Source: Thermodesulfobacteriota bacterium | GTDB taxonomy: Bacteria; Desulfobacterota; BSN033; UBA1163 | NCBI GenBank assembly: GCA_041947025.1 | Contig: JBHGBJ010000005.1 | Span: 26,382-90,381 of the forward strand | Length of the DNA stretch: 64,000 nt | Direction: 5' to 3' | In this document: positions 53,599 through 63,707 of the stretch, piece by piece | Layout: the number at the start of each line of letters is the position of its first letter | How positions within the stretch are numbered: the stretch's first letter is position 1 | Program-made: the position numbers and the translations under genes | Notes under the pieces: model-generated | Seen by the model: only the letters and a program-made list of their open reading frames with translations | What the model was told of the DNA's origin: nothing | The model's database searches: none

Positions 53599-53675
53599 CG
53601 GGGAGTAGCGCAGCCTGGTAGCGCGCTTGGTTCGGGACCAAGAGGCCGCCGGTTCAACTCCGGTCTCCCCGACCA
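53599..53675 (+). tRNA. tRNA-Pro (anticodon CGG)
   Basis: Hand-folded cloverleaf. Acceptor CGGGGAG/CTCCCCG, D-arm GCGC/GCGC, anticodon stem CTTGG/CCAAG with loop TTCGGGA (CGG, G37), T-arm GCCGG/CCGGT, encoded CCA. Confidence 0.9.
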
Positions 53676-53681
53676 GTTTTT
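53661..53681 (+). repeat. attL-like direct repeat (tRNA 3' end + 6 nt)
   Basis: CGGTCTCCCCGACCAGTTTTT, identical to 63687-63707. The flanking bases differ on both sides. Confidence 0.85.
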
Positions 53682-53924: not shown

Positions 53925-54245
53925 ATGCAACTGACCGACTACCACGCCAAATACTTCGCTCACGAGCTAACCAAACGATGCCCCTCCGACAGTACTGAGA
54001 AACTGGCCGGTGCTTTGGTTGGACTTCTATGCCTTCACCTCTTCACCGTGGAATCCCTCGACCAGGGGGAAAACTACCGCATCTTTTCCGGCGTAACCGA
54101 TCAGGGCGTACCCTTACAGGAGGAGGTTATCCGACGGTTCTTTACCTTATCGGTCAGAGTGGGGAATCCTTTACTTGGATCTCCTGAAGATTCAATCCTT
54201 GAGTCAGAAGTCAATGCACACCGGGCCGCGAACGTAGTCAATTAG
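53925..54245 (+). pseudogene. Remnant of an SNF2-type helicase gene (N-terminal ~30 aa fused to a C-terminal tail)
   Basis: MQLTDYHAKYFAHELTKRCPSDSTEKLAGAL is the N-terminus I associate with a widespread defence-island SNF2 helicase family. The ATPase motifs are entirely missing and only ~75 further residues follow. Confidence 0.45.
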
Positions 54246-54368: not shown

Positions 54369-54584
54369 ATGAATCTAATCCTGCGGCAGGGTGTCGTAGA
54401 AATTCGCTGGAGGCAGAATCTCCACCTTCTGGATAACAAGCCGGTCGGGATATCCGGTTATGTCACCAGGTTGACAGAATCCCTTCCAAAGAAGCTTAAG
54501 GGATTATTACCCAGTCCAGAAGAACTTGAAGCTGTATTGAGCGAAACAAAGGTGGAAAGTAGTGGGCATGAAGGTCGAAGCTAA
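54369..54584 (+). pseudogene. Remnant resembling the C-terminal end of a DUF1016/YhcG-type PDDEXK nuclease
   Basis: ...KPVGISGYVTRLTESLPKKLKGLLPSPEELEAVL matches the characteristic tail of that family. The nuclease core is absent. Confidence 0.4.
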
Positions 54585-54619
54585 GATACTTTCGATCCCC
54601 TAGTATATTGGAGAAATAA

Positions 54620-55909
54620 ATGGCAGAACCAACGATCATTTGTCCGAAATGTAAGACTGAGATTAAGTTGACGGAATCGCTTGCAGCGCCACTCGTCGAG
54701 TCAATCCGCCGTGACTATGAGGAACGTTTGCTTCAAAAGGACACCGACATCGCCAAGCGGGAGGCTTTGCTTAGGCAGCGGGAAGAAATTTTGTCCAGGG
54801 CAAGAGAGAACATTGAGAGCCAAATCACTGAAAAACTTCGAGAGGAACGCACAAAAATTGCCTCAGAGGAAGCGCGGAAAGCAAAACTTGCTCTGGCGAT
54901 CGACATTGAGCAGAAAGATAAGGAGATTACCAACCTTCAAGACATTGTTAAACTGCGGGACGTGAAGCTCATAGAGGCGCAGAAAGCACAGGCTGAAGTC
55001 ATTCGAAAACAGCGCGAGCTCGATGATACCAAACGTGAGATGGAACTCACCATTGAAAAACGGATTCAAGAGGGGATCTCTACAGTGCGAGAACAGGCTC
55101 AGAGGGAGGCCGAGGACCAACTGAAACTCAAGGTAATGGAAAAGGAACAAACTATTGCCTCAATGCAGAAGCAGATTGAGGATCTTAAACGTAGATCTGA
55201 GCAAGGATCACAGCAGCTTCAAGGTGAGGTTCAAGAACTGGAGCTTGAAGCCCTGCTCCGGACAAACTTTCCACGTGATACAATCGAGCCCGTCCCGAAA
55301 GGAGAGCATGGCGGCGACGTAATACAAAGGGTCATCGGGCCACTGGGTCAGACCTGTGGGACGATTTTGTGGGAGTCCAAACGTACAAAGAACTGGAGTG
55401 ATGGATGGCTCACTAAGCTCCGTGAAGACCAACGAACCGCGAAGGCGGAAGTCGCCGTGATCGTCAGCCGGGCACTCCCGAAGGAAGTCCAATCGTTTGA
55501 CCTAATAGATGGAGTGTGGGTAACCCATCCAAAAGCCGCGCTTCCCGTGGCTGTGAGCCTTCGCCATACTCTGATTGAGGTGACGTGCGCTCGTCAGGCA
55601 ATCCAAGGACAGGAAACAAAGATGGAGATAATATACCAGTATCTTACTGGACCGCGCTTCCGTCAACGCATCCAGGCCATCGTCGAAGCCTTCTCGTCTA
55701 TGCATGAGGATCTCGAAAAAGAGAAGAAAGTCATCACTAAACAGTGGGCGAAGCGTGAGGAGCAAATAGAACGGGTAATGCAGGCCACTGTCGGAATGTA
55801 CGGTGATTTACAAGGAATTGCAGGGAAGACACTGCAAGAAATTGAGGGCCTGGAATTCCTTGCCCTAGAGGATTCGACTTCCGGCGAGGAAGAAGCTGGC
55901 AGTAAGTAG
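54620..55909 (+). CDS. DUF2130-like protein: CxxC N-terminus, long coiled coil, C-terminal nuclease-like domain
   Basis: 429 aa. GGAG RBS. IICPKCKTEIKL, then an E/K/R/Q-rich helical region to about aa 205, then GEHGGDVIQRV...GTILWESKRTKNWSDGWLTKLREDQ (D...ExK pattern). Confidence 0.75.
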   Translation: MAEPTIICPKCKTEIKLTESLAAPLVESIRRDYEERLLQKDTDIAKREALLRQREEILSRARENIESQITEKLREERTKIASEEARKAKLALAIDIEQKDKEITNLQDIVKLRDVKLIEAQKAQAEVIRKQRELDDTKREMELTIEKRIQEGISTVREQAQREAEDQLKLKVMEKEQTIASMQKQIEDLKRRSEQGSQQLQGEVQELELEALLRTNFPRDTIEPVPKGEHGGDVIQRVIGPLGQTCGTILWESKRTKNWSDGWLTKLREDQRTAKAEVAVIVSRALPKEVQSFDLIDGVWVTHPKAALPVAVSLRHTLIEVTCARQAIQGQETKMEIIYQYLTGPRFRQRIQAIVEAFSSMHEDLEKEKKVITKQWAKREEQIERVMQATVGMYGDLQGIAGKTLQEIEGLEFLALEDSTSGEEEAGSK

Positions 55910-55946
55910 TTCTTAATGCCGATAGCCTGCTCTTAAGGAGGGTGAG

Positions 55947-57809
55947 ATGAGAATCGTCCAACTTAAGGTATCCAATTTCCGTTGTTTCAAAGATGAGACC
56001 GTTGTTAGCCTTGACAATCTCGTTCTATTCATCGGTAAGAACGATTCTGGGAAATCCTCCCTGCTTGATGCGATGGATATCTTTTTTAACGAAGTACCTG
56101 AACAAGATGATGTTTGTGTTCATGGAAGTGACAAGAAAGTCAGTATTACATGCGTGTTTGACGAGCTTCCTACAGAATTGGTAATTGATGAACAGCATCC
56201 AACGAATCTGTCAGCGGAATATCTTCTAAATCGGGATGGGAGGTTAGAAGTTGTTAAGGTATTCAACTGTTCTGGCTCGGGAAAGGTAAGGGCGGCAAGT
56301 GTGTTTGCACGAGCAAAACACCCAACCGCTGACAAGTTCAATGACCTGCTAACTCTCACTAATGCAAAATTAAAACAAAGGGCAAAAGAGTTAGGTGTTG
56401 ATGTTACCAACGTGAATCAAACAATCAACACTGAACTTAGGCGCGCTATCTGGGCACAGGCTCCTGATCTTCAGTGCAAAGAAATTGACATCGAACTAAA
56501 ATCCGAAACGGCTGAGAAGATTTGGGAGCAATTGAAGAAGCATCTTCCTGTCTTCGCCCTTTTTAAATCCGACCGACCTAGCACGGATCAAGACGCGGAA
56601 GCTCAAGATCCGATGAAATCGGCTATTAAGGAAGCAATTAAAGGGCAAGAGATATTGCTCAATGATCTTGCAGAAAAGGTGAAAAAGGAGGTTCAAGAGA
56701 TTGCAAATCGTACCGTGGAAAAAATCCGAGAAATGGCTCCTGATTTGGCGAATCAACTAACTCCTCGGGTGACAAATAAGAATTGGGAAAGTCTTTTCTC
56801 GGTGAGCCTTACAGGAGATGAAGACATTCCAATCAATAAGCGTGGTAGTGGCACGAGACGCTTGGTACTTCTTAACTTTTTCCGAGCAAAGGCAGAGAGG
56901 GATGCCGAAGGAAAAGGGGCAGGTATCATCTATGCGATAGAAGAGCCCGAAACTAGTCAGCATCCAAATAACCAGAAAATGATCATCGAAGCTTTTGATG
57001 ACCTGGCAAGCCGGACCGGTTGCCAAGTATTCTTAACAACCCATACCCCAACGTTAGCACGGAAATTTTCTCAAACAGCACTTCGATATGTCACATGGAA
57101 AGACGGACAACCCATCGTCTATGAAGGACGCAATGATGAAACCCTTGCCGAAATTGCTAACTCGCTGGGCGTTCTCCCGGACCATAACATTAGGACGTTT
57201 TTTGGCGTAGAAGGAAGAAATGATATCACATTTCTTACAACTGTGTCCAAAATACTCCACGATATGGGGGAAGATGTACCCAACCTTGGAGAAGTAGAAG
57301 ACAACGGCCACTTGGTCTTTGTTCCGCTGGGTGGAAGTAGCCTAGACTTGTGGGTATCAAGGCTCCGGGGATTCAATAGGCCGGAATTCTATCTTATGGA
57401 TAGGGATACGTGTCCACCAGAAAAGCCCAGATACTACAACATTGCTGAAGAATTGGGTAAGCGTACGAACTGCACTGTCTGGACAACCGGCCGAAAAGAG
57501 CTGGAGAACTACATCCATCCCGATCTTATTAAGGCCAGCTACCCCGGATATTCTGGTGTTGGTAATGAATTTGAAGATGTGCCCATGCTTTTAGCCCAAG
57601 CGGTCCACGAGGCCAGTGGTAGCGGTCAAACCTGGGCGGATATCCTTTCTGATCCTGAGAAGTTAAGCAAGAAAATTTCGAACGCCAAACGCCGCTTATG
57701 TACGGAATTCGTATCCAAGATGACATCGGATTTGCTTGCCAAAATTGATCTCAATAAAGAGGTTATAGCTTGGTTAAAGGCAATCGGTGTGGCATTGCAA
57801 GCTGCATAA
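55947..57809 (+). CDS. OLD-family nuclease: ABC-type ATPase fused to TOPRIM domain
   Basis: 620 aa. AAGGAGG RBS. Walker A GKNDSGKSS, Walker B IYAIEEPETSQHP, H-loop FLTTHTP. C-terminal FGVEGRNDITF ... FVPLGGSS ... YLMDRDT (TOPRIM Glu and DxD). Confidence 0.8.
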   Translation: MRIVQLKVSNFRCFKDETVVSLDNLVLFIGKNDSGKSSLLDAMDIFFNEVPEQDDVCVHGSDKKVSITCVFDELPTELVIDEQHPTNLSAEYLLNRDGRLEVVKVFNCSGSGKVRAASVFARAKHPTADKFNDLLTLTNAKLKQRAKELGVDVTNVNQTINTELRRAIWAQAPDLQCKEIDIELKSETAEKIWEQLKKHLPVFALFKSDRPSTDQDAEAQDPMKSAIKEAIKGQEILLNDLAEKVKKEVQEIANRTVEKIREMAPDLANQLTPRVTNKNWESLFSVSLTGDEDIPINKRGSGTRRLVLLNFFRAKAERDAEGKGAGIIYAIEEPETSQHPNNQKMIIEAFDDLASRTGCQVFLTTHTPTLARKFSQTALRYVTWKDGQPIVYEGRNDETLAEIANSLGVLPDHNIRTFFGVEGRNDITFLTTVSKILHDMGEDVPNLGEVEDNGHLVFVPLGGSSLDLWVSRLRGFNRPEFYLMDRDTCPPEKPRYYNIAEELGKRTNCTVWTTGRKELENYIHPDLIKASYPGYSGVGNEFEDVPMLLAQAVHEASGSGQTWADILSDPEKLSKKISNAKRRLCTEFVSKMTSDLLAKIDLNKEVIAWLKAIGVALQAA

Positions 57810-57826
57810 AGTGGGAAAGAAGCTAA

Positions 57827-59539
57827 ATGACTAAGAAAACCAAACTTGAACTGACATGGATTGGGAAGGAGAACCGGCCACGGCTGGAGCCGCGCATCCT
57901 TCTTGAAGATCCGGAAAAATCTTATCACGCTCCACACCGATTGACAGACCATGACTTTTTCGACAACCGCCTTATCTTCGGAGATAATCTCCTCGCGCTT
58001 AAAGCGCTGGAACAGGAATTTACGGGAAAGATCAAGTGTATTTATATCGATCCTCCGTATAATACCGGTTCGGCGTTCGAACATTACGAGGATGGCATCG
58101 AACATTCCATGTGGTTGTGCCTCATGCGTGATCGAATGGAGATGCTTCGTCGATTACTGACGAGTGATGGTAGTGTGTGGATATCCATCGACGACAATGA
58201 GTGTCATTACTTCAAGGTCATGATGGACGAGATATTTGGGCGGCAGAACTTTGTCGCAACTATCATTTGGCAAAAGGTGTTCACTGTAAAAAACTCCGCC
58301 CGCCACTTTTCCGATATGCATGACTATATTTTGGTCTACGCAAGAGACATTTCGCGATGGGAGCGCAACCTCCTGCCGAGGACTGAAGCATTAGATAGCA
58401 CTTACTCGAACCCCGACATTGATCCACGTGGAGCATGGACGACCAATGCAGTCCAGGCAAGGAATTATTACAGCCAAGGCTCTTACGAAATAAGATCACC
58501 GAGTGGCCGTGTATTCCTCCCCCCCAAAGGGACATACTGGAGAATTTCGGAAGAGACCTTTAAAGAACTCGATTCCGATGGCCGTGTTTGGTGGGGTAGG
58601 AGCGGCAACAGCATTCCGCGAATCAAGAAGTTTCTTTCAGAAGCAAAACAAGGCGTGGTGCCAGCTACGTTTTGGGCACATGAGGAGTGCGGGACTAACG
58701 CCGAGGCGAAGACCGAGATGCGATCTTTGATTGCCGACGTTGAAGAGACTGAGATGTTCTTGACGCCAAAGCCTGAACGATTGCTGAAACGCGTCTTGGA
58801 TCTGGCAAGCAACCCTGGTGATTGGGTGCTTGACTCTTTCGCAGGTTCCGGTACGGCTGGTGCAGTAGCCCACAAGATGGGGCGGCGATGGATCATGGTG
58901 GAGTTGGGGGAACACTGTCACACGCACATTATCCCACGTATGAAGAAGGTTATTGATGGTACGGACAAGGGCGGGATCACAGAATCCGTCGGCTGGAAGG
59001 GGGGTGGCGGATTTCGGTACTACCGGCTGGGTCCTTCGTTGCTTGAGAAAGACCGGTTTGGCAATTGGATCATCAACAAAAAGTATAATGCCGCTATGCT
59101 TGCAGAGGCTATCTGCAAGCTGGAGGGGTTTACGTACGCGCCAAGTGAGGAGGTTTATTGGCAGCATGGCCATTCCACTGAGAATGATTTCATCTACGTC
59201 ACCACGCAGACGCTGACCCGTGAACAGTTTCAGAGACTTTCGGACGAGGTTGGCGAGGGCCGGAGCTTACTTGTCATGTGTGGCGCGTTTCGTGTGAAAA
59301 ACCTTGATGACTTCCCTAATCTTACCGTCAAGAAGATTCCCAAGGCTGTGATGAGCCGTTGCGAGTGGGGAAAGGACGACTACAGCCTCGAAATTAGAAA
59401 CCTTCAGATGAAGGAGATGGAACCGGCTGAGGAAAAAGATGAACTAGCGCCGAATGCCAGTGATAAAAGCGCACCCAGCCCAAAACAGGCCACTCTTTTT
59501 GACCTGACCGGACGGAAAGGCGGGAAGAAAAATGACTGA
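57827..59539 (+). CDS. mod: Type III R-M DNA methyltransferase (Mod), beta-class N6A/N4C MTase
   Basis: Motif IV IYIDPPYNTGSAF precedes motif I LDSFAGSGTAGAVA. 570 aa. Followed in the operon by a Res helicase-nuclease. Confidence 0.85.
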   Translation: MTKKTKLELTWIGKENRPRLEPRILLEDPEKSYHAPHRLTDHDFFDNRLIFGDNLLALKALEQEFTGKIKCIYIDPPYNTGSAFEHYEDGIEHSMWLCLMRDRMEMLRRLLTSDGSVWISIDDNECHYFKVMMDEIFGRQNFVATIIWQKVFTVKNSARHFSDMHDYILVYARDISRWERNLLPRTEALDSTYSNPDIDPRGAWTTNAVQARNYYSQGSYEIRSPSGRVFLPPKGTYWRISEETFKELDSDGRVWWGRSGNSIPRIKKFLSEAKQGVVPATFWAHEECGTNAEAKTEMRSLIADVEETEMFLTPKPERLLKRVLDLASNPGDWVLDSFAGSGTAGAVAHKMGRRWIMVELGEHCHTHIIPRMKKVIDGTDKGGITESVGWKGGGGFRYYRLGPSLLEKDRFGNWIINKKYNAAMLAEAICKLEGFTYAPSEEVYWQHGHSTENDFIYVTTQTLTREQFQRLSDEVGEGRSLLVMCGAFRVKNLDDFPNLTVKKIPKAVMSRCEWGKDDYSLEIRNLQMKEMEPAEEKDELAPNASDKSAPSPKQATLFDLTGRKGGKKND

Positions 59540-60575
59540 TCATCTTCCGGAAAAAAGGGGACCTTCATCAGAGATTCTATTCTATCAAACCGAAGACGGC
59601 CGGAATCGAATCGAAGTGCATCTGGAGAATGAAACGGTTTGGTTAACTCAAGCCTCAATGGCGGAACTCTTTCAAACTACTCCGCAAAACATCACACTTC
59701 ACCTCAAGAACATCTACGGAGAAGGCGAACTCCATGAGGCAGCAACCTGTAAGGATTACTTACAAGTTCAAAATGAGGGTTCTCGTCAAGTCCGGAGAAG
59801 CAGACGGTTTTATAACCTTGAAGCCATCATCGCTGTGGGCTACCGTGTGAAGTCTCATCGCGGCACGCAGTTCCGAAGATGGGCAACCGAGCGGTTGCGT
59901 GAGTATCTGGTCAAGGGCTTCGCGATGGATGATGAGCGGCTCAAGGAAGGTAGGAACATCGGGGCGGATTATTTTGATGAACTGCTTGAGCGCATTCGTG
60001 ACATCCGTGCATCCGAGAAACGTTTCTACCAGAAAATCAGGGATATCTACAAATTGGCCATTGACTACGACCCGGAGGCGGAGGAAACAAAAGAGTTTTT
60101 CCAGATCGTGCAGAACAAACTCCACTGGGCAATTACCGGCAAGACGGCAGCGGAGTTGATTGCGGAAAGGGCGGATTCTTCCAAACCGAACATGGGGCTA
60201 ACGAGTTGGAAGGGCATTAAAGTTCGCAGAACCGATGTCGTTGTTGCAAAGAATTACCTGAATATCGAGGAGATTGGTGAACTTAACAGGATCGTCGTCA
60301 TGTATCTTGATTATGCCGAGGATCAGGCTCACCGTCGAAAACCCCTTTACATGCGTGATTGGCGAGAAAAAATTGATGCATTTTTGAAATTTAACGAGCG
60401 TGCCATCCTGGGGGATGCAGGAAAAGTGTCCATGGAAGTTGCCAAGGCCCTGGCTACAGAGGAATATGACAAATTTAACCAGCGCCGCCTGGCCGAAGAA
60501 GCGGGCAAGGAAGAAGAGGAATTTGAGAAGATCGCGGAGCAGATTGAACGAAAAGGCCGGAGGAGGAAGAAATGA
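59532..60575 (+). CDS. rhuM: RhuM-family protein inserted between mod and res
   Basis: ILFYQTEDGRNRIEVHLENETVWLTQASMAELFQTTPQNITLHLKNIY...AVGYRVKSHRGTQFRRWATERLREYLVKGF is the RhuM signature. It overlaps mod by 8 nt and res by 4 nt. Confidence 0.8.
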   Translation: MTDHLPEKRGPSSEILFYQTEDGRNRIEVHLENETVWLTQASMAELFQTTPQNITLHLKNIYGEGELHEAATCKDYLQVQNEGSRQVRRSRRFYNLEAIIAVGYRVKSHRGTQFRRWATERLREYLVKGFAMDDERLKEGRNIGADYFDELLERIRDIRASEKRFYQKIRDIYKLAIDYDPEAEETKEFFQIVQNKLHWAITGKTAAELIAERADSSKPNMGLTSWKGIKVRRTDVVVAKNYLNIEEIGELNRIVVMYLDYAEDQAHRRKPLYMRDWREKIDAFLKFNERAILGDAGKVSMEVAKALATEEYDKFNQRRLAEEAGKEEEEFEKIAEQIERKGRRRKK

Positions 60576-63280
60576 ACGACTCCTACGTCAATACGATCGC
60601 CAATCGCCTGAGCCTGCGTCGACCTCAACGCATATCGCTTGAGATCCTCCATAGGATTTGTGATCTCATCCCTCTTGAGAAAAACGCGGACATCGTGCAG
60701 GCACTCCGGGTAATTCAGTCGGAATTTCCTTCGGTCTCTGATTTTGAGCGCGATTTTCCATCCCTTTGCTTTGCACTCGCAACCGGAGTTGGCAAAACCC
60801 GCCTCATGGGAGCCTTCATTTCATACCTCTTCAAGACCAGGGATATCCGGCATTTCTTTGTGCTTGCACCTAACCTCACCATTTACAACAAGCTGACCAC
60901 GGATTTTACCCCCAATACGCCTAAGTATGTCTTTCAGGGCATCGCGGAGTTCGCCGTTACACCGCCAGAGATCATCACCGGCGACAACTACGAAACCGGC
61001 CGCGGTATCCGACAAAAAGGTTACCTGCCGGGGATAGAATGGGAAACCCCGATCCATATCAACATCTTTAACATCTCCAAGATCACGAGCACGGAAACAC
61101 CGAAAGGAGCCGTCAAAAGTAATATCCCGCGATTCCGGCGCCTCCAAGAATACATTGGCCAGAGCTATTTTGAATACCTTTCGAATCTGGACGATTTGGT
61201 GCTCCTGATGGACGAATCGCACCGGTACAGGGCGTCAGCGGGTATGAAAGCGATCAGCGAGCTTACACCGATCCTGGGACTTGAGCTTACGGCAACGCCC
61301 CAGGTGGAAAAAGGTGGCACCCAGGAACCGTTCAGGAACGTCATCTATAGCTATCCTCTTTCAAATGCAATGGCAGACGGATTTGTTAAAGAGCCCGCCG
61401 TGGCGACCCGTGAGAATTTCGATATCCGTAACTACGATGATGCTGGATTGGAGCGGTTAAAATTAGAGGATGGGGTACGCATCCATGAAAACACCAAAGT
61501 GGAGCTGGAAATTTACGCCCGGGAGAATAGTAGGCCCATTGTGAAGCCGTTCCTGCTGGTCATTGCGCGCGATACGGACCACGCTAATTCCCTTCTGAAG
61601 ATAATCGAAGATGAAACATTCTTTGAGGGCCGTTACAAGGGAAAGGTTATCCAGGTCCATTCTAAGCAGAGCGGGGAGGAGAGGGATGAAACCATCGAGC
61701 AGCTGATCAACGTGGAGAAACCCCAAAATCCGACTGAAATCGTCATTCACGTAAACATGCTGAAAGAAGGGTGGGATGTTACGAACCTCTATACCATCGT
61801 TCCGCTCCGGGCTGCAAACTCGAAAACGCTTGTGGAGCAGTCGATTGGCCGGGGGCTACGCCTTCCTTATGGAAAGAGGACGGAAGTGGGTGCGGTAGAC
61901 CGTCTGACCATCGTCTCCCACGATAAGTTCCAGGAGATCGTGGATTATGCCAACAGCCCGGATTCCATCATCCGGGGAGGCTTGAAGGTTATCCACATCA
62001 CCGACGAGCGAAACAAGGTCTATGTAGCCGAACCGGAGATCATAAGCCGAGTTTCGGAGGGCTTATCCACCTACGCCGGGTCAGAAAGCACGGGAAAACA
62101 GACAGCGCTCTTTGAGAACCCGAAAGAGCAGGAGGCAGCAAAGGCTACACTTGAAGTTATCCGGAGAGAATTCGAGCGTTTGCCGCGTTCCTCTGATCTG
62201 ACTAAACCTGAAATTCAGGAAAAGATTGTCGACAAGGTGAAGGAGATCATAACTCCTGCCCAGAAGGAGCTGGAAGGCATCGCTGAAAAGGTGGACGTGG
62301 CCAGGGTGGTCGCCTCTACGATTACCCTTCGCAATGAGCTATCCATTGATATCCCACGCATCATCGTCCAGCCGGTCGGCGAGGTAACTCGGGGGTACCG
62401 GGAATTCGGTCTCGATTTGTCCTCCATTCATCTCTTGCCGGTAGATAACGAAATTCTTATCCAGGAACTGCACCGGCGAGAGCAACACCGGCTGATGAGC
62501 GGCACCGGCATCCTACCGGAAGAACGGTTTGAAGACTACCTTGTCCGGGGTCTCATCGATTTTAATGACATTTGCTACGACGATCATGCGGAATTACTTT
62601 ATAAACTGGCCGGACAGGTTGTGGCGCACCTCCGATCCTACCTCAACAGCGAAGAAGAGGTGGTCAATGTCCTGCAATACCACCAGCAGGCCTTAGTGAA
62701 CCTGGTCCATGCGCAGATGCAAGAGCATTACGAAGAAAAAGCAACCTCCTTTGAGGCACACGTGAGCAAAGGATTCACAACGCTCCGGCCTAACAACTAT
62801 TCCGCTCCTGCCGGTGAATCCGAACGTGACTTCCGGGCACCGGTATCTGATAAACATGATATCTGCAAGATGCTTTTTAGCGGCTTCAGAAAGTGTCTGT
62901 ATCGAATTCAAAAATTCGACTCCGATTCGGAGCGCCGATTTGCCGTGATCCTTGAGAACGACAAGGAAGTGATGAAGTGGTTCAAGCCAGCCAAAGGGAA
63001 CCTCCAGATTCACTACACCGGCGATGCGTCCTACGAACCGGACTTCGTAGTGGAGGCAAAATCGACCAAATTTCTTTGTGAGGCAAAGAGCGCTGCCGAA
63101 ATGACAGACAAAGAAGTGCAGGCCAAGGCCAGGGCTGCCCTGGAATGGTGCAAGAACGCAACCGCTCATGAACTGAAACACGGCGGAAAGTCCTGGTCAT
63201 ACTTGCTCGTTCCACATGACATCATCTCAGACAACAAGACATTGCAGGGATTGGCCGCAAGCTGTACGTATAGCGAATAG
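60572..63280 (+). CDS. res: Type III restriction enzyme Res subunit (SF2 helicase + PD-(D/E)xK nuclease)
   Basis: 902 aa. Motif I LATGVGKTRL, motif II LLMDESHRY, motif VI QSIGRGLRL. C-terminal YEPDFVVEAKSTKFLCEAKS nuclease motif. Confidence 0.85.
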   Translation: MNDSYVNTIANRLSLRRPQRISLEILHRICDLIPLEKNADIVQALRVIQSEFPSVSDFERDFPSLCFALATGVGKTRLMGAFISYLFKTRDIRHFFVLAPNLTIYNKLTTDFTPNTPKYVFQGIAEFAVTPPEIITGDNYETGRGIRQKGYLPGIEWETPIHINIFNISKITSTETPKGAVKSNIPRFRRLQEYIGQSYFEYLSNLDDLVLLMDESHRYRASAGMKAISELTPILGLELTATPQVEKGGTQEPFRNVIYSYPLSNAMADGFVKEPAVATRENFDIRNYDDAGLERLKLEDGVRIHENTKVELEIYARENSRPIVKPFLLVIARDTDHANSLLKIIEDETFFEGRYKGKVIQVHSKQSGEERDETIEQLINVEKPQNPTEIVIHVNMLKEGWDVTNLYTIVPLRAANSKTLVEQSIGRGLRLPYGKRTEVGAVDRLTIVSHDKFQEIVDYANSPDSIIRGGLKVIHITDERNKVYVAEPEIISRVSEGLSTYAGSESTGKQTALFENPKEQEAAKATLEVIRREFERLPRSSDLTKPEIQEKIVDKVKEIITPAQKELEGIAEKVDVARVVASTITLRNELSIDIPRIIVQPVGEVTRGYREFGLDLSSIHLLPVDNEILIQELHRREQHRLMSGTGILPEERFEDYLVRGLIDFNDICYDDHAELLYKLAGQVVAHLRSYLNSEEEVVNVLQYHQQALVNLVHAQMQEHYEEKATSFEAHVSKGFTTLRPNNYSAPAGESERDFRAPVSDKHDICKMLFSGFRKCLYRIQKFDSDSERRFAVILENDKEVMKWFKPAKGNLQIHYTGDASYEPDFVVEAKSTKFLCEAKSAAEMTDKEVQAKARAALEWCKNATAHELKHGGKSWSYLLVPHDIISDNKTLQGLAASCTYSE

Positions 63281-63686: not shown

Positions 63687-63707
63687 CGGTCTCCCCGACC
63701 AGTTTTT
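63687..63707 (+). repeat. attR-like direct repeat
   Basis: Exact copy of 53661-53681. It ends 3 nt before the stop codon (63711-63713) of the next minus-strand gene. Confidence 0.85.

Follow-up and report, generated by a model that had tools for sequence, protein, structure and literature searches.

In a Thermodesulfobacteriota bacterium, the type III restriction-modification (R-M) operon of a tRNA-Pro island opens with two genes, the first (gene 1) encoding a protein of the DUF2130 family and the second (gene 2) an OLD-family protein that joins an ABC ATPase to a TOPRIM nuclease. Both lie in the stretch of DNA analyzed here, hereafter the window (64,000 nucleotides [nt]; assembly GCA_041947025.1, contig JBHGBJ010000005.1, positions 26,382 to 90,381, forward strand). 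The arrangement raises the question of whether the two genes form a defense module of their own, serve the R-M system as an accessory layer, or are joined in some looser way. On balance, the evidence favors two separate, self-contained nuclease genes that have been stacked, together with a RhuM-family gene, into variable slots of the type III R-M operon. We infer that they are linked by shared location and co-transfer and not by a two-protein machine, because the 3′ junction of the DUF2130 gene exchanges cassettes and the whole block moves as a unit.

A preliminary description of the locus had proposed the two genes as a candidate defense module, and co-conservation in other genomes was the yardstick fixed beforehand; on that yardstick, an obligate pair largely failed. 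Close DUF2130 loci were collected from one genome per species (80 loci, 69%–78% identical; locus labels are L-numbers) and full-length relatives of gene 2 from a metagenome scan (80 proteins, 42%–86% identical). DUF2130 is encoded directly upstream of 6 of the 55 gene 2 relatives whose upstream sequence extends over at least 1.3 kb; all belong to the 18 relatives that are at least 50% identical to gene 2, and none to the 37 below 50%. A gene 2 orthologue was found in 3 of the 80 DUF2130 loci, where it is intact (L042), frameshifted (L023), or a fragment (L020). Among the 65 DUF2130 loci with sufficient downstream sequence, an ATPase gene follows in 23 and none in 42.

The neighbors of the 80 gene 2 relatives are variable, and no other conserved partner was evident. 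A type III mod gene lies directly 3′ of about 11 of them, res also recurs, and a large SNF2 gene lies upstream in nine loci. Most of these SNF2 proteins match the PADLOC DrmD model (E ∼1e-204 to 1e-216). The SNF2 protein encoded upstream of the OLD-like gene in L084 and L088 matches HmaA instead (E ∼1e-166 to 1e-168); HmaB follows the OLD-like gene in L084 and L087, so that the L084 gene sits between HmaA and HmaB, and the L088 gene lies directly 3′ of HmaA. Other relatives precede a type III mod without DUF2130 (L083, L085, and L090). The family is also common on plasmids (381 records, 247 of them near full length, mostly enterobacterial) and was monocistronic in the three plasmid contexts examined. 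Because its relatives occur in Hma systems, upstream of mod without DUF2130, and alone on plasmids, gene 2 is best regarded as an embedded, self-contained cassette. The full-length plasmid relatives (H41–H55; for example, L178 5001–6827) are 33%–47% identical to gene 2, reside mostly on enterobacterial conjugative plasmids, and carry no annotation beyond “AAA family ATPase” or “ATP-binding protein”; the copy on Citrobacter pUMH16 is located between parAB and the sil operon.

DUF2130 likewise occurs apart from any ATPase. Distant homologues (33% identity) in three Campylobacterota genomes (L170, L172, and L174) are syntenic and lack an ATPase neighbor. The order there is an ABC transporter (L170 and L174), DUF2130, YkuD, and Mfd (L170 and L172), and the stretch just 5′ of DUF2130 varies, with a HepT/MNT toxin-antitoxin and rve in L174 and NYN and SNase in L172. 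Rhizobial plasmid copies are solitary. On the conjugative Mesorhizobium plasmid pMLa (L164 6980–8275), DUF2130 lies near genes for a relaxase, ParA, DUF736, and a zincin-like metallopeptidase, in a region reminiscent of leading or maintenance regions, which are frequent sites of anti-defense genes. In a Pfam census, the larger neighbors of solitary DUF2130 genes were mostly housekeeping genes, and small toxin-antitoxin and mobile-element genes often adjoin. A conserved toxin-antitoxin pair upstream of DUF2130 was considered and rejected, a Gp49-like/helix-turn-helix (HTH) pair being present in just two to four of the 80 loci.

What follows DUF2130 suggests how the two genes came to be neighbors. 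The 3′ end of the DUF2130 gene is a precise, recurrent exchange junction for defense cassettes, mostly ABC-ATPase genes. The slot beyond it holds a canonical OLD gene in L001, L010, and L047, SIR2+HerA in L009, PDC-S06 together with an OLD gene in L026, an LmuB-like (AAA_13) ATPase in L013/L014, and a Ppl-like protein in L025 and L003; in L008 it is empty, with mod directly next. Some of these cassettes match named defense systems or PADLOC candidates. Over all 36 co-directional genes found in the first position downstream (+1), AAA_15 was matched in 13, an OLD-like TOPRIM in seven, and AAA_13 in seven, the further matches being Ppl-like, LmuB-like, and PDC-S06. Even where DUF2130 proteins are 88%–97% identical, the genes that come next are unrelated or absent. 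Two syntenic pairs of Nitrospira loci (L029 versus L018 and L021 versus L030) carry different ATPase cassettes 3′ of DUF2130; homology is lost ∼30 nt short of the DUF2130 stop codon and picks up again 2–6 kb downstream (L029 4587–8221 versus L018 9834–14916; likewise L021 versus L030). Orphan 5′ pieces of mod, encoding N-terminal fragments, lie beside inserted ATPase cassettes in L026 (13954–14103) and L022 (13086–13229) and look like recombination scars at the mod 5′ end. No description of a DUF2130/ABC-ATPase junction was found in the searchable open literature, closed-access papers being outside the search.

Direct repeats that reproduce the 3′ terminus of a HEAT-repeat gene flank DUF2130 in two loci, L030 (8737–9008 and 11291–11562; 272 nt, 83% identical) and L065 (9572–9744 and 11299–11471; 173 nt, 87% identical). 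Between the L030 repeats there are also a Gp49-like toxin gene and an HTH gene. In both loci, DUF2130 may have come in as a small inserted cassette.

The closest relatives of the window operon, L161 and L162, contain the same five genes, and their proteins are 84%–87% identical to those of the window. The DNA shared with them is confined to positions 54573–63271, which are ∼82% identical except for the center of mod. DUF2130-OLD-Mod-RhuM-Res thus moves as one block, with DUF2130 first. The center of mod (∼58275–58817) has no DNA homology to L161/L162; the target-recognition domain has probably been swapped there, and the recognition sequence would then differ. More widely, the order SNF2 (DrmD-like), optional gene or genes, DUF2130, variable slot, Mod, variable slot, Res is found in at least eight loci (L008, L009, L014, L026, L099, L100, L103, and, with SNF2 as a remnant, the window). 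Because intact SNF2 copies precede the same DUF2130/Mod/Res arrangement elsewhere, this suggests a recurrent three-gene system of SNF2, type III Mod, and Res with two variable slots. The slot between mod and res, which holds rhuM in the window, contains other small genes or nothing in relatives (L008, L014, and L025).

A “guilt-by-embedding” survey has described defense genes nested in Hma, BREX, DISARM, and type I R-M systems; ABC ATPases were the cargo seen most often, and one ATPase-TOPRIM fusion, HEC-04, was validated (10.1101/2024.01.29.577857). The window genes in the variable slots match this published pattern of embedded defense genes (HEC-01 to HEC-04, the PADLOC candidates, and PrrC/RloC in type I R-M). 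The likeness lies in the co-directional nesting of ABC-ATPase nucleases inside a system of methylase and helicase genes: relatives of gene 2 are found between HmaA and HmaB, and in the window RhuM (PDC-S05) lies between mod and res. The host system in the window is type III, whereas the survey covered the four systems named above; the nesting of OLD-type genes in type III R-M is an extension of the known pattern. HEC-04 was not among the 25 best PADLOC matches of gene 2. DUF2130 appears neither in the main text or supplements of the embedding study nor in PADLOC-DB. Of the two options left by the preliminary description, an accessory layer of the R-M system, in the form of genes occupying variable slots of SNF2-mod-res, is nearer to the evidence than an independent two-gene module.

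Gene 2 has the architecture of a single-chain OLD nuclease. Residues 1–371 match AAA_15 (E 4.7e-78), and the Walker A segment (G30–S37), E332–E335, and H366 are invariant among its relatives. The closest sequences in the Protein Data Bank (PDB) are OLD nucleases, the Class 1 OLD of Thermus scotoductus (Ts OLD; 6p74) being the best and GajA also matching; they align over EEPE...TH. The C-terminal part is more elusive. Its last 220–250 residues gave no Pfam match (E up to 10, including PF20469) and no PADLOC match (E up to 1). In the AlphaFold2 model (mean predicted local distance difference test score [pLDDT] 81, above 90 across most of the C-terminal domain), the TOPRIM domain is built of four strands that alternate with helices, and E422-G423, G462-G463, D485-x-D487, and E520-N-Y522 within this domain are invariant among relatives. 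Foldseek retrieved full-length GajA, Ts OLD, and the OLD protein of retron-Eco8 (E 1e-15 to 1e-17, ∼650–670 columns). When the C-terminal profile was aligned by hhalign with the canonical OLD TOPRIM (VEG...GGK...DxD), the register was correct and the score weak (E 0.013). A Citrobacter plasmid protein is 33% identical to gene 2 over residues 1–599, and its own C-terminus matches the TOPRIM parts of the GajA, Old, and AriB models. Because of the invariant motifs, the fold, and this transitive plasmid homologue, the OLD architecture that the preliminary description had recognized is accepted, and the TOPRIM region is accepted as a divergent domain missed by the current Pfam and PADLOC models.

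OLD classes are defined by gene context (PMC7049728 and PMC10568477), and the context of the gene 2 family matches the Class 1 definition because its relatives lack a conserved partner. Gabija (Class 2) was rejected: the gene 3′ of gene 2 is a type III mod, and no UvrD-like open reading frame (ORF) was found in 50–64 kb of the window. Class 3, the retron-associated OLD, was rejected as well, since Pfam detected no reverse transcriptase domain among the island genes and Rfam, run over 53–64 kb, found no RNA family besides the tRNA and hence no retron RNA. A fused PARIS reading failed because the C-terminal 221–250 residues gave no DUF4435/AriB match (E up to 1–10) and no neighboring gene encodes such a domain. 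The ATPase of gene 2 does score on the GajA and AriA models, and its fold matches GajA, but the window differs from Gabija and PARIS in that neither a UvrD-like GajB gene nor a DUF4435/AriB domain or gene was detected. Earlier remarks that a GajB, retron, or AriB partner is missing from the island were therefore correct. Phage origin of gene 2 was dismissed, with just three weak phage records matching.

Gene 2 is accordingly placed, from its sequence and predicted fold, as a single-gene, Class-1-like OLD with intact predicted catalytic residues. Similar to P2 Old, Ts OLD (6P74), and Vc OLD, it combines in one chain an ABC ATPase (Walker A, EEPE, and H-loop) and a TOPRIM domain (E...DxD), it has no helicase, retron, or AriB partner, and its relatives are usually single genes. 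In contrast to them, its TOPRIM domain has diverged so far that neither PF20469 nor any PADLOC model recognizes it. Class 1 OLD genes have also been described as lying away from other defense genes (PMC10568477), whereas gene 2 sits inside an R-M operon. Among the OLD nucleases, gene 2 represents a new and divergent member.

Gene 1 matches the DUF2130 family PF09903 at 263.4 bits (cut-off 26.7) over residues 169–412, which cover profile positions 2–251 of 255. Matching clusters number more than 8000 at 90% identity; among the best 120 of these, identities, where given, are 61%–87%, and the clusters whose source is named stem from Nitrospirota, Planctomycetota, or a Crenarchaeota metagenome-assembled genome (MAG). 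The genome scan added DUF2130 genes in Verrucomicrobiota, Binatia, Chlamydiota, and one Bathyarchaeia MAG. The CPKC motif (C8 and C11), GGD233, and W-E252-S-K254-RTK are conserved without exception across 40 homologues. In the AlphaFold2 model (mean pLDDT 77.5), D233 opens the strand 233–239, and E252 closes the strand 245–252. The PD-(D/E)xK superfamily is marked by an alpha-beta-beta-beta-alpha-beta core whose beta2-beta3 hairpin bears the conserved D...(D/E)xK residues. DUF2130 is listed in a survey of this superfamily (PMC3424549), and the motif and the modeled geometry fit that assignment, in line with the nuclease motif noted by the preliminary description.

A Foldseek search of the PDB with the gene 1 model gave no significant match (best E 0.14), and a sequence search of the PDB returned only a spurious coiled-coil match. 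The weak structural hits were DdmD (probability 0.77), Bax1, a SPARDA chain, and a McrBC chain, all of which we take to be chains or domains of the PD-(D/E)xK superfamily. The likeness to RmuC that had been suggested holds only as an architectural analogy. Like RmuC and other coiled-coil PD-(D/E)xK proteins, DUF2130 has a D...ExK core preceded by a long N-terminal helix, but DUF2130 bears an N-terminal CxxC hairpin and has no detectable sequence relationship to RmuC. When a DUF2130 profile built from 40 sequences was compared with E. coli RmuC by hhalign, the alignment covered 21 columns at E 0.31, and PF02646 was not matched. The 552–613-aa isoforms of DUF2130 (P0001, P0004, P0011, and P0048) differ from the 429-aa form by a tandem duplication within the long helix, so the length of the coiled coil is evolutionarily variable. 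Phage genomes contain matches in just seven Helicobacter prophage-like records, and a phage origin was rejected. None of the open-access papers naming DUF2130, PF09903, or COG4487 assigns it a function, in agreement with its earlier description as a family without one. From its motifs, gene 1 would be a dimeric coiled-coil, metal-dependent DNA nuclease that acts alone.

Several observations weigh against reading genes 1 and 2 as separate units, and they are also those that bear on a different explanation, in which DUF2130 would be the nuclease or sensor partner of whichever ABC ATPase is encoded directly downstream. The window pair would then belong, as one variant, to a new “DUF2130 + ABC ATPase” family and in effect add a further context class to OLD; we rate this as possible, though somewhat unlikely. 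When ORFs of at least 150 aa around DUF2130 were searched for ATPase-like genes, these made up 20 of 54 ORFs at position +1, with five more at +2 or +3, and none of 129 upstream or of 437 distant ORFs. All are co-directional with DUF2130, with small gaps that are often −4 nt. The queries were drawn from the +1 neighbors themselves, so divergent ATPases elsewhere may have been missed; a large bias is unlikely because Pfam censuses of the other neighbors argue against it. The pattern spans several phyla, and about half of the cases have no detectable type III mod or res downstream. A functional partnership would also give this pattern, and the +1 position, the orientation, the overlaps, and the restriction to ABC ATPases exceed what is expected of mere island neighbors. 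The block shared with L161/L162 begins 47 nt upstream of DUF2130, indicating that DUF2130 was transferred, and presumably is transcribed, with it. The function ascribed to DUF2130 is, moreover, read from motifs only. A strict +1 co-directional ATPase, often with overlapping stop and start codons, occurs in the 23 of 65 loci mentioned above, across Nitrospirota, Verrucomicrobiota, Planctomycetota, Binatia, and the Bathyarchaeia MAG. DUF2130 is retained through cassette swaps in which the replacements are mostly ABC ATPases again, and the conserved block begins with it. There is also a tested precedent in HEC-02, an ABC ATPase that needs a separate PD-(D/E)xK-superfamily (NERD) protein, both being required, with HEC-01 and PARIS (ABC ATPase plus TOPRIM) as analogues. 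The window resembles HEC-02 in having an ATPase gene and a separate PD-(D/E)xK-superfamily gene, but it differs in that the gene 2 ATPase has a TOPRIM domain of its own, the nuclease gene comes first, and the two families occur mostly apart. Indeed, most members of either family are found without the other, the type of partner does not track DUF2130 phylogeny, and the C-terminal tail of DUF2130 shows no general partner-specific pattern. The +1 proteins come with nuclease domains of their own; canonical OLD and Ppl count among the named single-gene systems, and PADLOC lists PDC-S06 as a single-gene candidate. In L009 the slot is filled by SIR2+HerA, and in L008 mod is directly next. No PADLOC-DB v2 or NCBIfam model matches gene 1 or represents a two-gene defense system with DUF2130, and the open literature describes none, so the earlier statement that the pair is not a named system is upheld within these sources. 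A related view, that DUF2130 is a hub for interchangeable 3′ ABC-ATPase effectors in a new modular defense family or itself drives cassette capture, we regard as rather doubtful. The effectors could then be OLD-type, Ppl-like, AAA_13/LmuB-like, and PDC-S06-related, and the window pair could be a new OLD context class.

Genes 1 and 2 might instead be accessory subunits of the SNF2 (DrmD-like), Mod, and Res system with no role outside it, for example by processing DNA for that machine or guarding it. The SNF2-(DUF2130)-(variable)-Mod-(variable)-Res order in at least eight loci and the type III mod directly 3′ of ∼11 gene 2 relatives speak for this possibility. It is nevertheless improbable, as the slots vary (SNF2/Mod/Res occurs with OLD and without DUF2130 in L083 and L085, and with DUF2130 and without OLD in L008 and L009), a type III R-M system is missing from ∼65 of the 80 DUF2130 loci and from most loci of gene 2 relatives, and in the window all five downstream genes are intact even though the SNF2 gene has been destroyed. 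Very improbable, in our estimate, is that DUF2130 is a recombination or repair nuclease or a cassette-capture factor and not a defense protein, with only gene 2 related to immunity. Its unusually high conservation (70%–87% identity across phyla), its syntenic chromosomal position near mfd in Campylobacterota, the housekeeping genes that are the larger neighbors of solitary copies, and its near-absence from phage genomes are consistent with such a role, as are the recombination junctions at its 3′ end and the direct repeats of 170–270 nt that flank it in L030 and L065. However, DUF2130 is often found beside toxin-antitoxin, KilA-N, nuclease, Schlafen/AlbA_2, TIR, and Fic genes and R-M systems, it is located in plasmid accessory regions, and no homology to RmuC was detected. 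This possibility overlaps with the explanation that we prefer rather than excluding it.

Under the preferred explanation of separate, stacked nuclease genes, the type III R-M operon would once have possessed an upstream DrmD-like SNF2 helicase, now a remnant. Studies of P2 Old, Ts OLD, and Vc OLD found that the ATPase and TOPRIM residues are both needed and that the proteins have nicking or exonuclease activity (PMC12392090 and PMC10568477). Vc OLD is a nickase requiring both ATPase and nuclease residues, and a Class 1 OLD is able to defend alone (PMC12392090). Analogous to these proteins, the gene 2 product may multimerize, with ATP binding and hydrolysis licensing the predicted TOPRIM site (E422, D485, and D487). 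It would then nick or degrade DNA during infection and so could back up the R-M system as a second layer. Gene 1 would be an autonomous, conserved coiled-coil nuclease whose 3′ end marks the junction at which cassettes are exchanged.

The surroundings of the five genes are those of a small island (Table 1). The tRNA-Pro island noted earlier is real, with two perfect copies of the 21-bp repeat in the window where none is expected by chance. It spans ∼10.0 kb and is nearly filled by the operon, in the order gene 1 (DUF2130), gene 2 (OLD), type III mod, rhuM, and res, all on the + strand. The ORF list contains no integrase ORF within the island, which for this reason looks like an immobilized integrative element whose whole cargo is the defense operon. 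The ORFs bear out exactly the layout first described for the two co-directional genes, with gaps of 37 nt between genes 1 and 2 and 17 nt between gene 2 and mod, and Shine-Dalgarno-like sequences before gene 1 (GGAG) and gene 2 (AGGAGG). No terminator-like site was found on the + strand between gene 1 and ∼62.4 kb. An N6/N4 methyltransferase (Mod) and an SF2 helicase with an endonuclease domain (Res) encoded in one operon are what define a type III R-M system, and both are present in the window; rhuM is nested between them and overlaps mod by 8 nt and res by 4 nt. Upstream of gene 1, the SNF2 remnant consists of residues ∼2–36 fused in frame to ∼762–836, the helicase core having been deleted. 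Its intact counterparts in L008, L085, and L100 match the PADLOC DrmD model PDLC02619 (E ∼1e-204 to 1e-216). DISARM, in which a DrmA, DrmB, and DrmC core is accompanied by DrmD and a methylase, was rejected as an identity for the locus, which has just this internally deleted DrmD-like remnant and no island gene with DrmA, DrmB, or DrmC as its top family. The match of the 71-aa ORF to PDC-S02 is confined to profile positions 305–341 of 346 (∼37 residues), and the ORF is probably a remnant of another embedded gene.

Table 1. Features of the tRNA-Pro island, with positions in the window
Feature	Position	Strand	Evidence or residues
tRNA-Pro (CGG), integration site of the island	53599..53675	+	ARAGORN; Rfam tRNA, 65 bits
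Left 21-bp direct repeat, attL-like	53661..53681	+	CGGTCTCCCCGACCAGTTTTT; last 15 nt of the tRNA and next 6 nt
DrmD-like SNF2 helicase remnant	53931..54230	+	tblastn with intact ∼950-aa SNF2 proteins of L008, L085, L100
71-aa ORF resembling the C-terminus of PADLOC candidate PDC-S02	54369..54584	+	PDLC04831, E 7.4e-6
Gene 1, DUF2130 protein, 429 aa	54620..55909	+	PF09903, E 2.4e-78
Gene 1, CxxC beta-hairpin, aa 5–16	54641–54652 (CPKC, aa 8–11)		C8, C11
Gene 1, single long helix, aa 19–216	54674–55267		AlphaFold2
Gene 1, alpha/beta core, aa 221–330	55280–55609		AlphaFold2
Gene 1, core residue D233	55316–55318		
Gene 1, core residue E252	55373–55375		
Gene 1, core residue K254	55379–55381		
Gene 1, C-terminal long helix, aa 346–417			AlphaFold2
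Gene 2, OLD-family ABC ATPase + TOPRIM nuclease, 620 aa	55947..57809	+	AAA_15
Gene 2, Walker A	56034–56057		G30–S37, K36
Gene 2, Walker B-like EEPE, aa 332–335	56940–56951		
Gene 2, H-loop	57042–57044		H366
Gene 2, TOPRIM-like domain, ∼aa 415–525	57189–57521		
Gene 2, TOPRIM residue E422	57210–57212		
Gene 2, TOPRIM residues D485-R-D487	57399–57407		
Gene 2, TOPRIM residues E520-N-Y522			
Gene 2, helical C-terminal region, aa 545–618			
Type III methyltransferase Mod	57827..59539	+	N6_N4_Mtase, E 1.8e-45; PADLOC MTase_III, E 6e-227
RhuM-family gene (PADLOC candidate PDC-S05)	59532..60575	+	PF13310, E 9.6e-119; PDC-S05, E 1.6e-151
Type III restriction subunit Res, helicase + C-terminal endonuclease	60572..63280	+	ResIII, Helicase_C, RE_endonuc; PADLOC REase_III, E 1.1e-233
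Right 21-bp direct repeat, attR-like, island end	63687..63707	+	

Gene 2 adds to the OLD nucleases a large and widespread Class-1-like subfamily, with at least 247 near-full-length plasmid copies, mostly enterobacterial. As its TOPRIM domain is missed, annotation pipelines label the family merely “ATP-binding protein.” Whether Class 1 OLD proteins provide stand-alone defense is considered unsettled in the field (PMC10568477), and gene 2, within a type III R-M operon, offers a convenient test case. The junction at the 3′ end of DUF2130 could be used for discovering new cassettes, which would extend “guilt by embedding” to type III R-M systems and to DUF2130 as an anchor. If it is true that DUF2130 cooperates with ATPases, this would provide a role for a conserved family of more than 8000 clusters.

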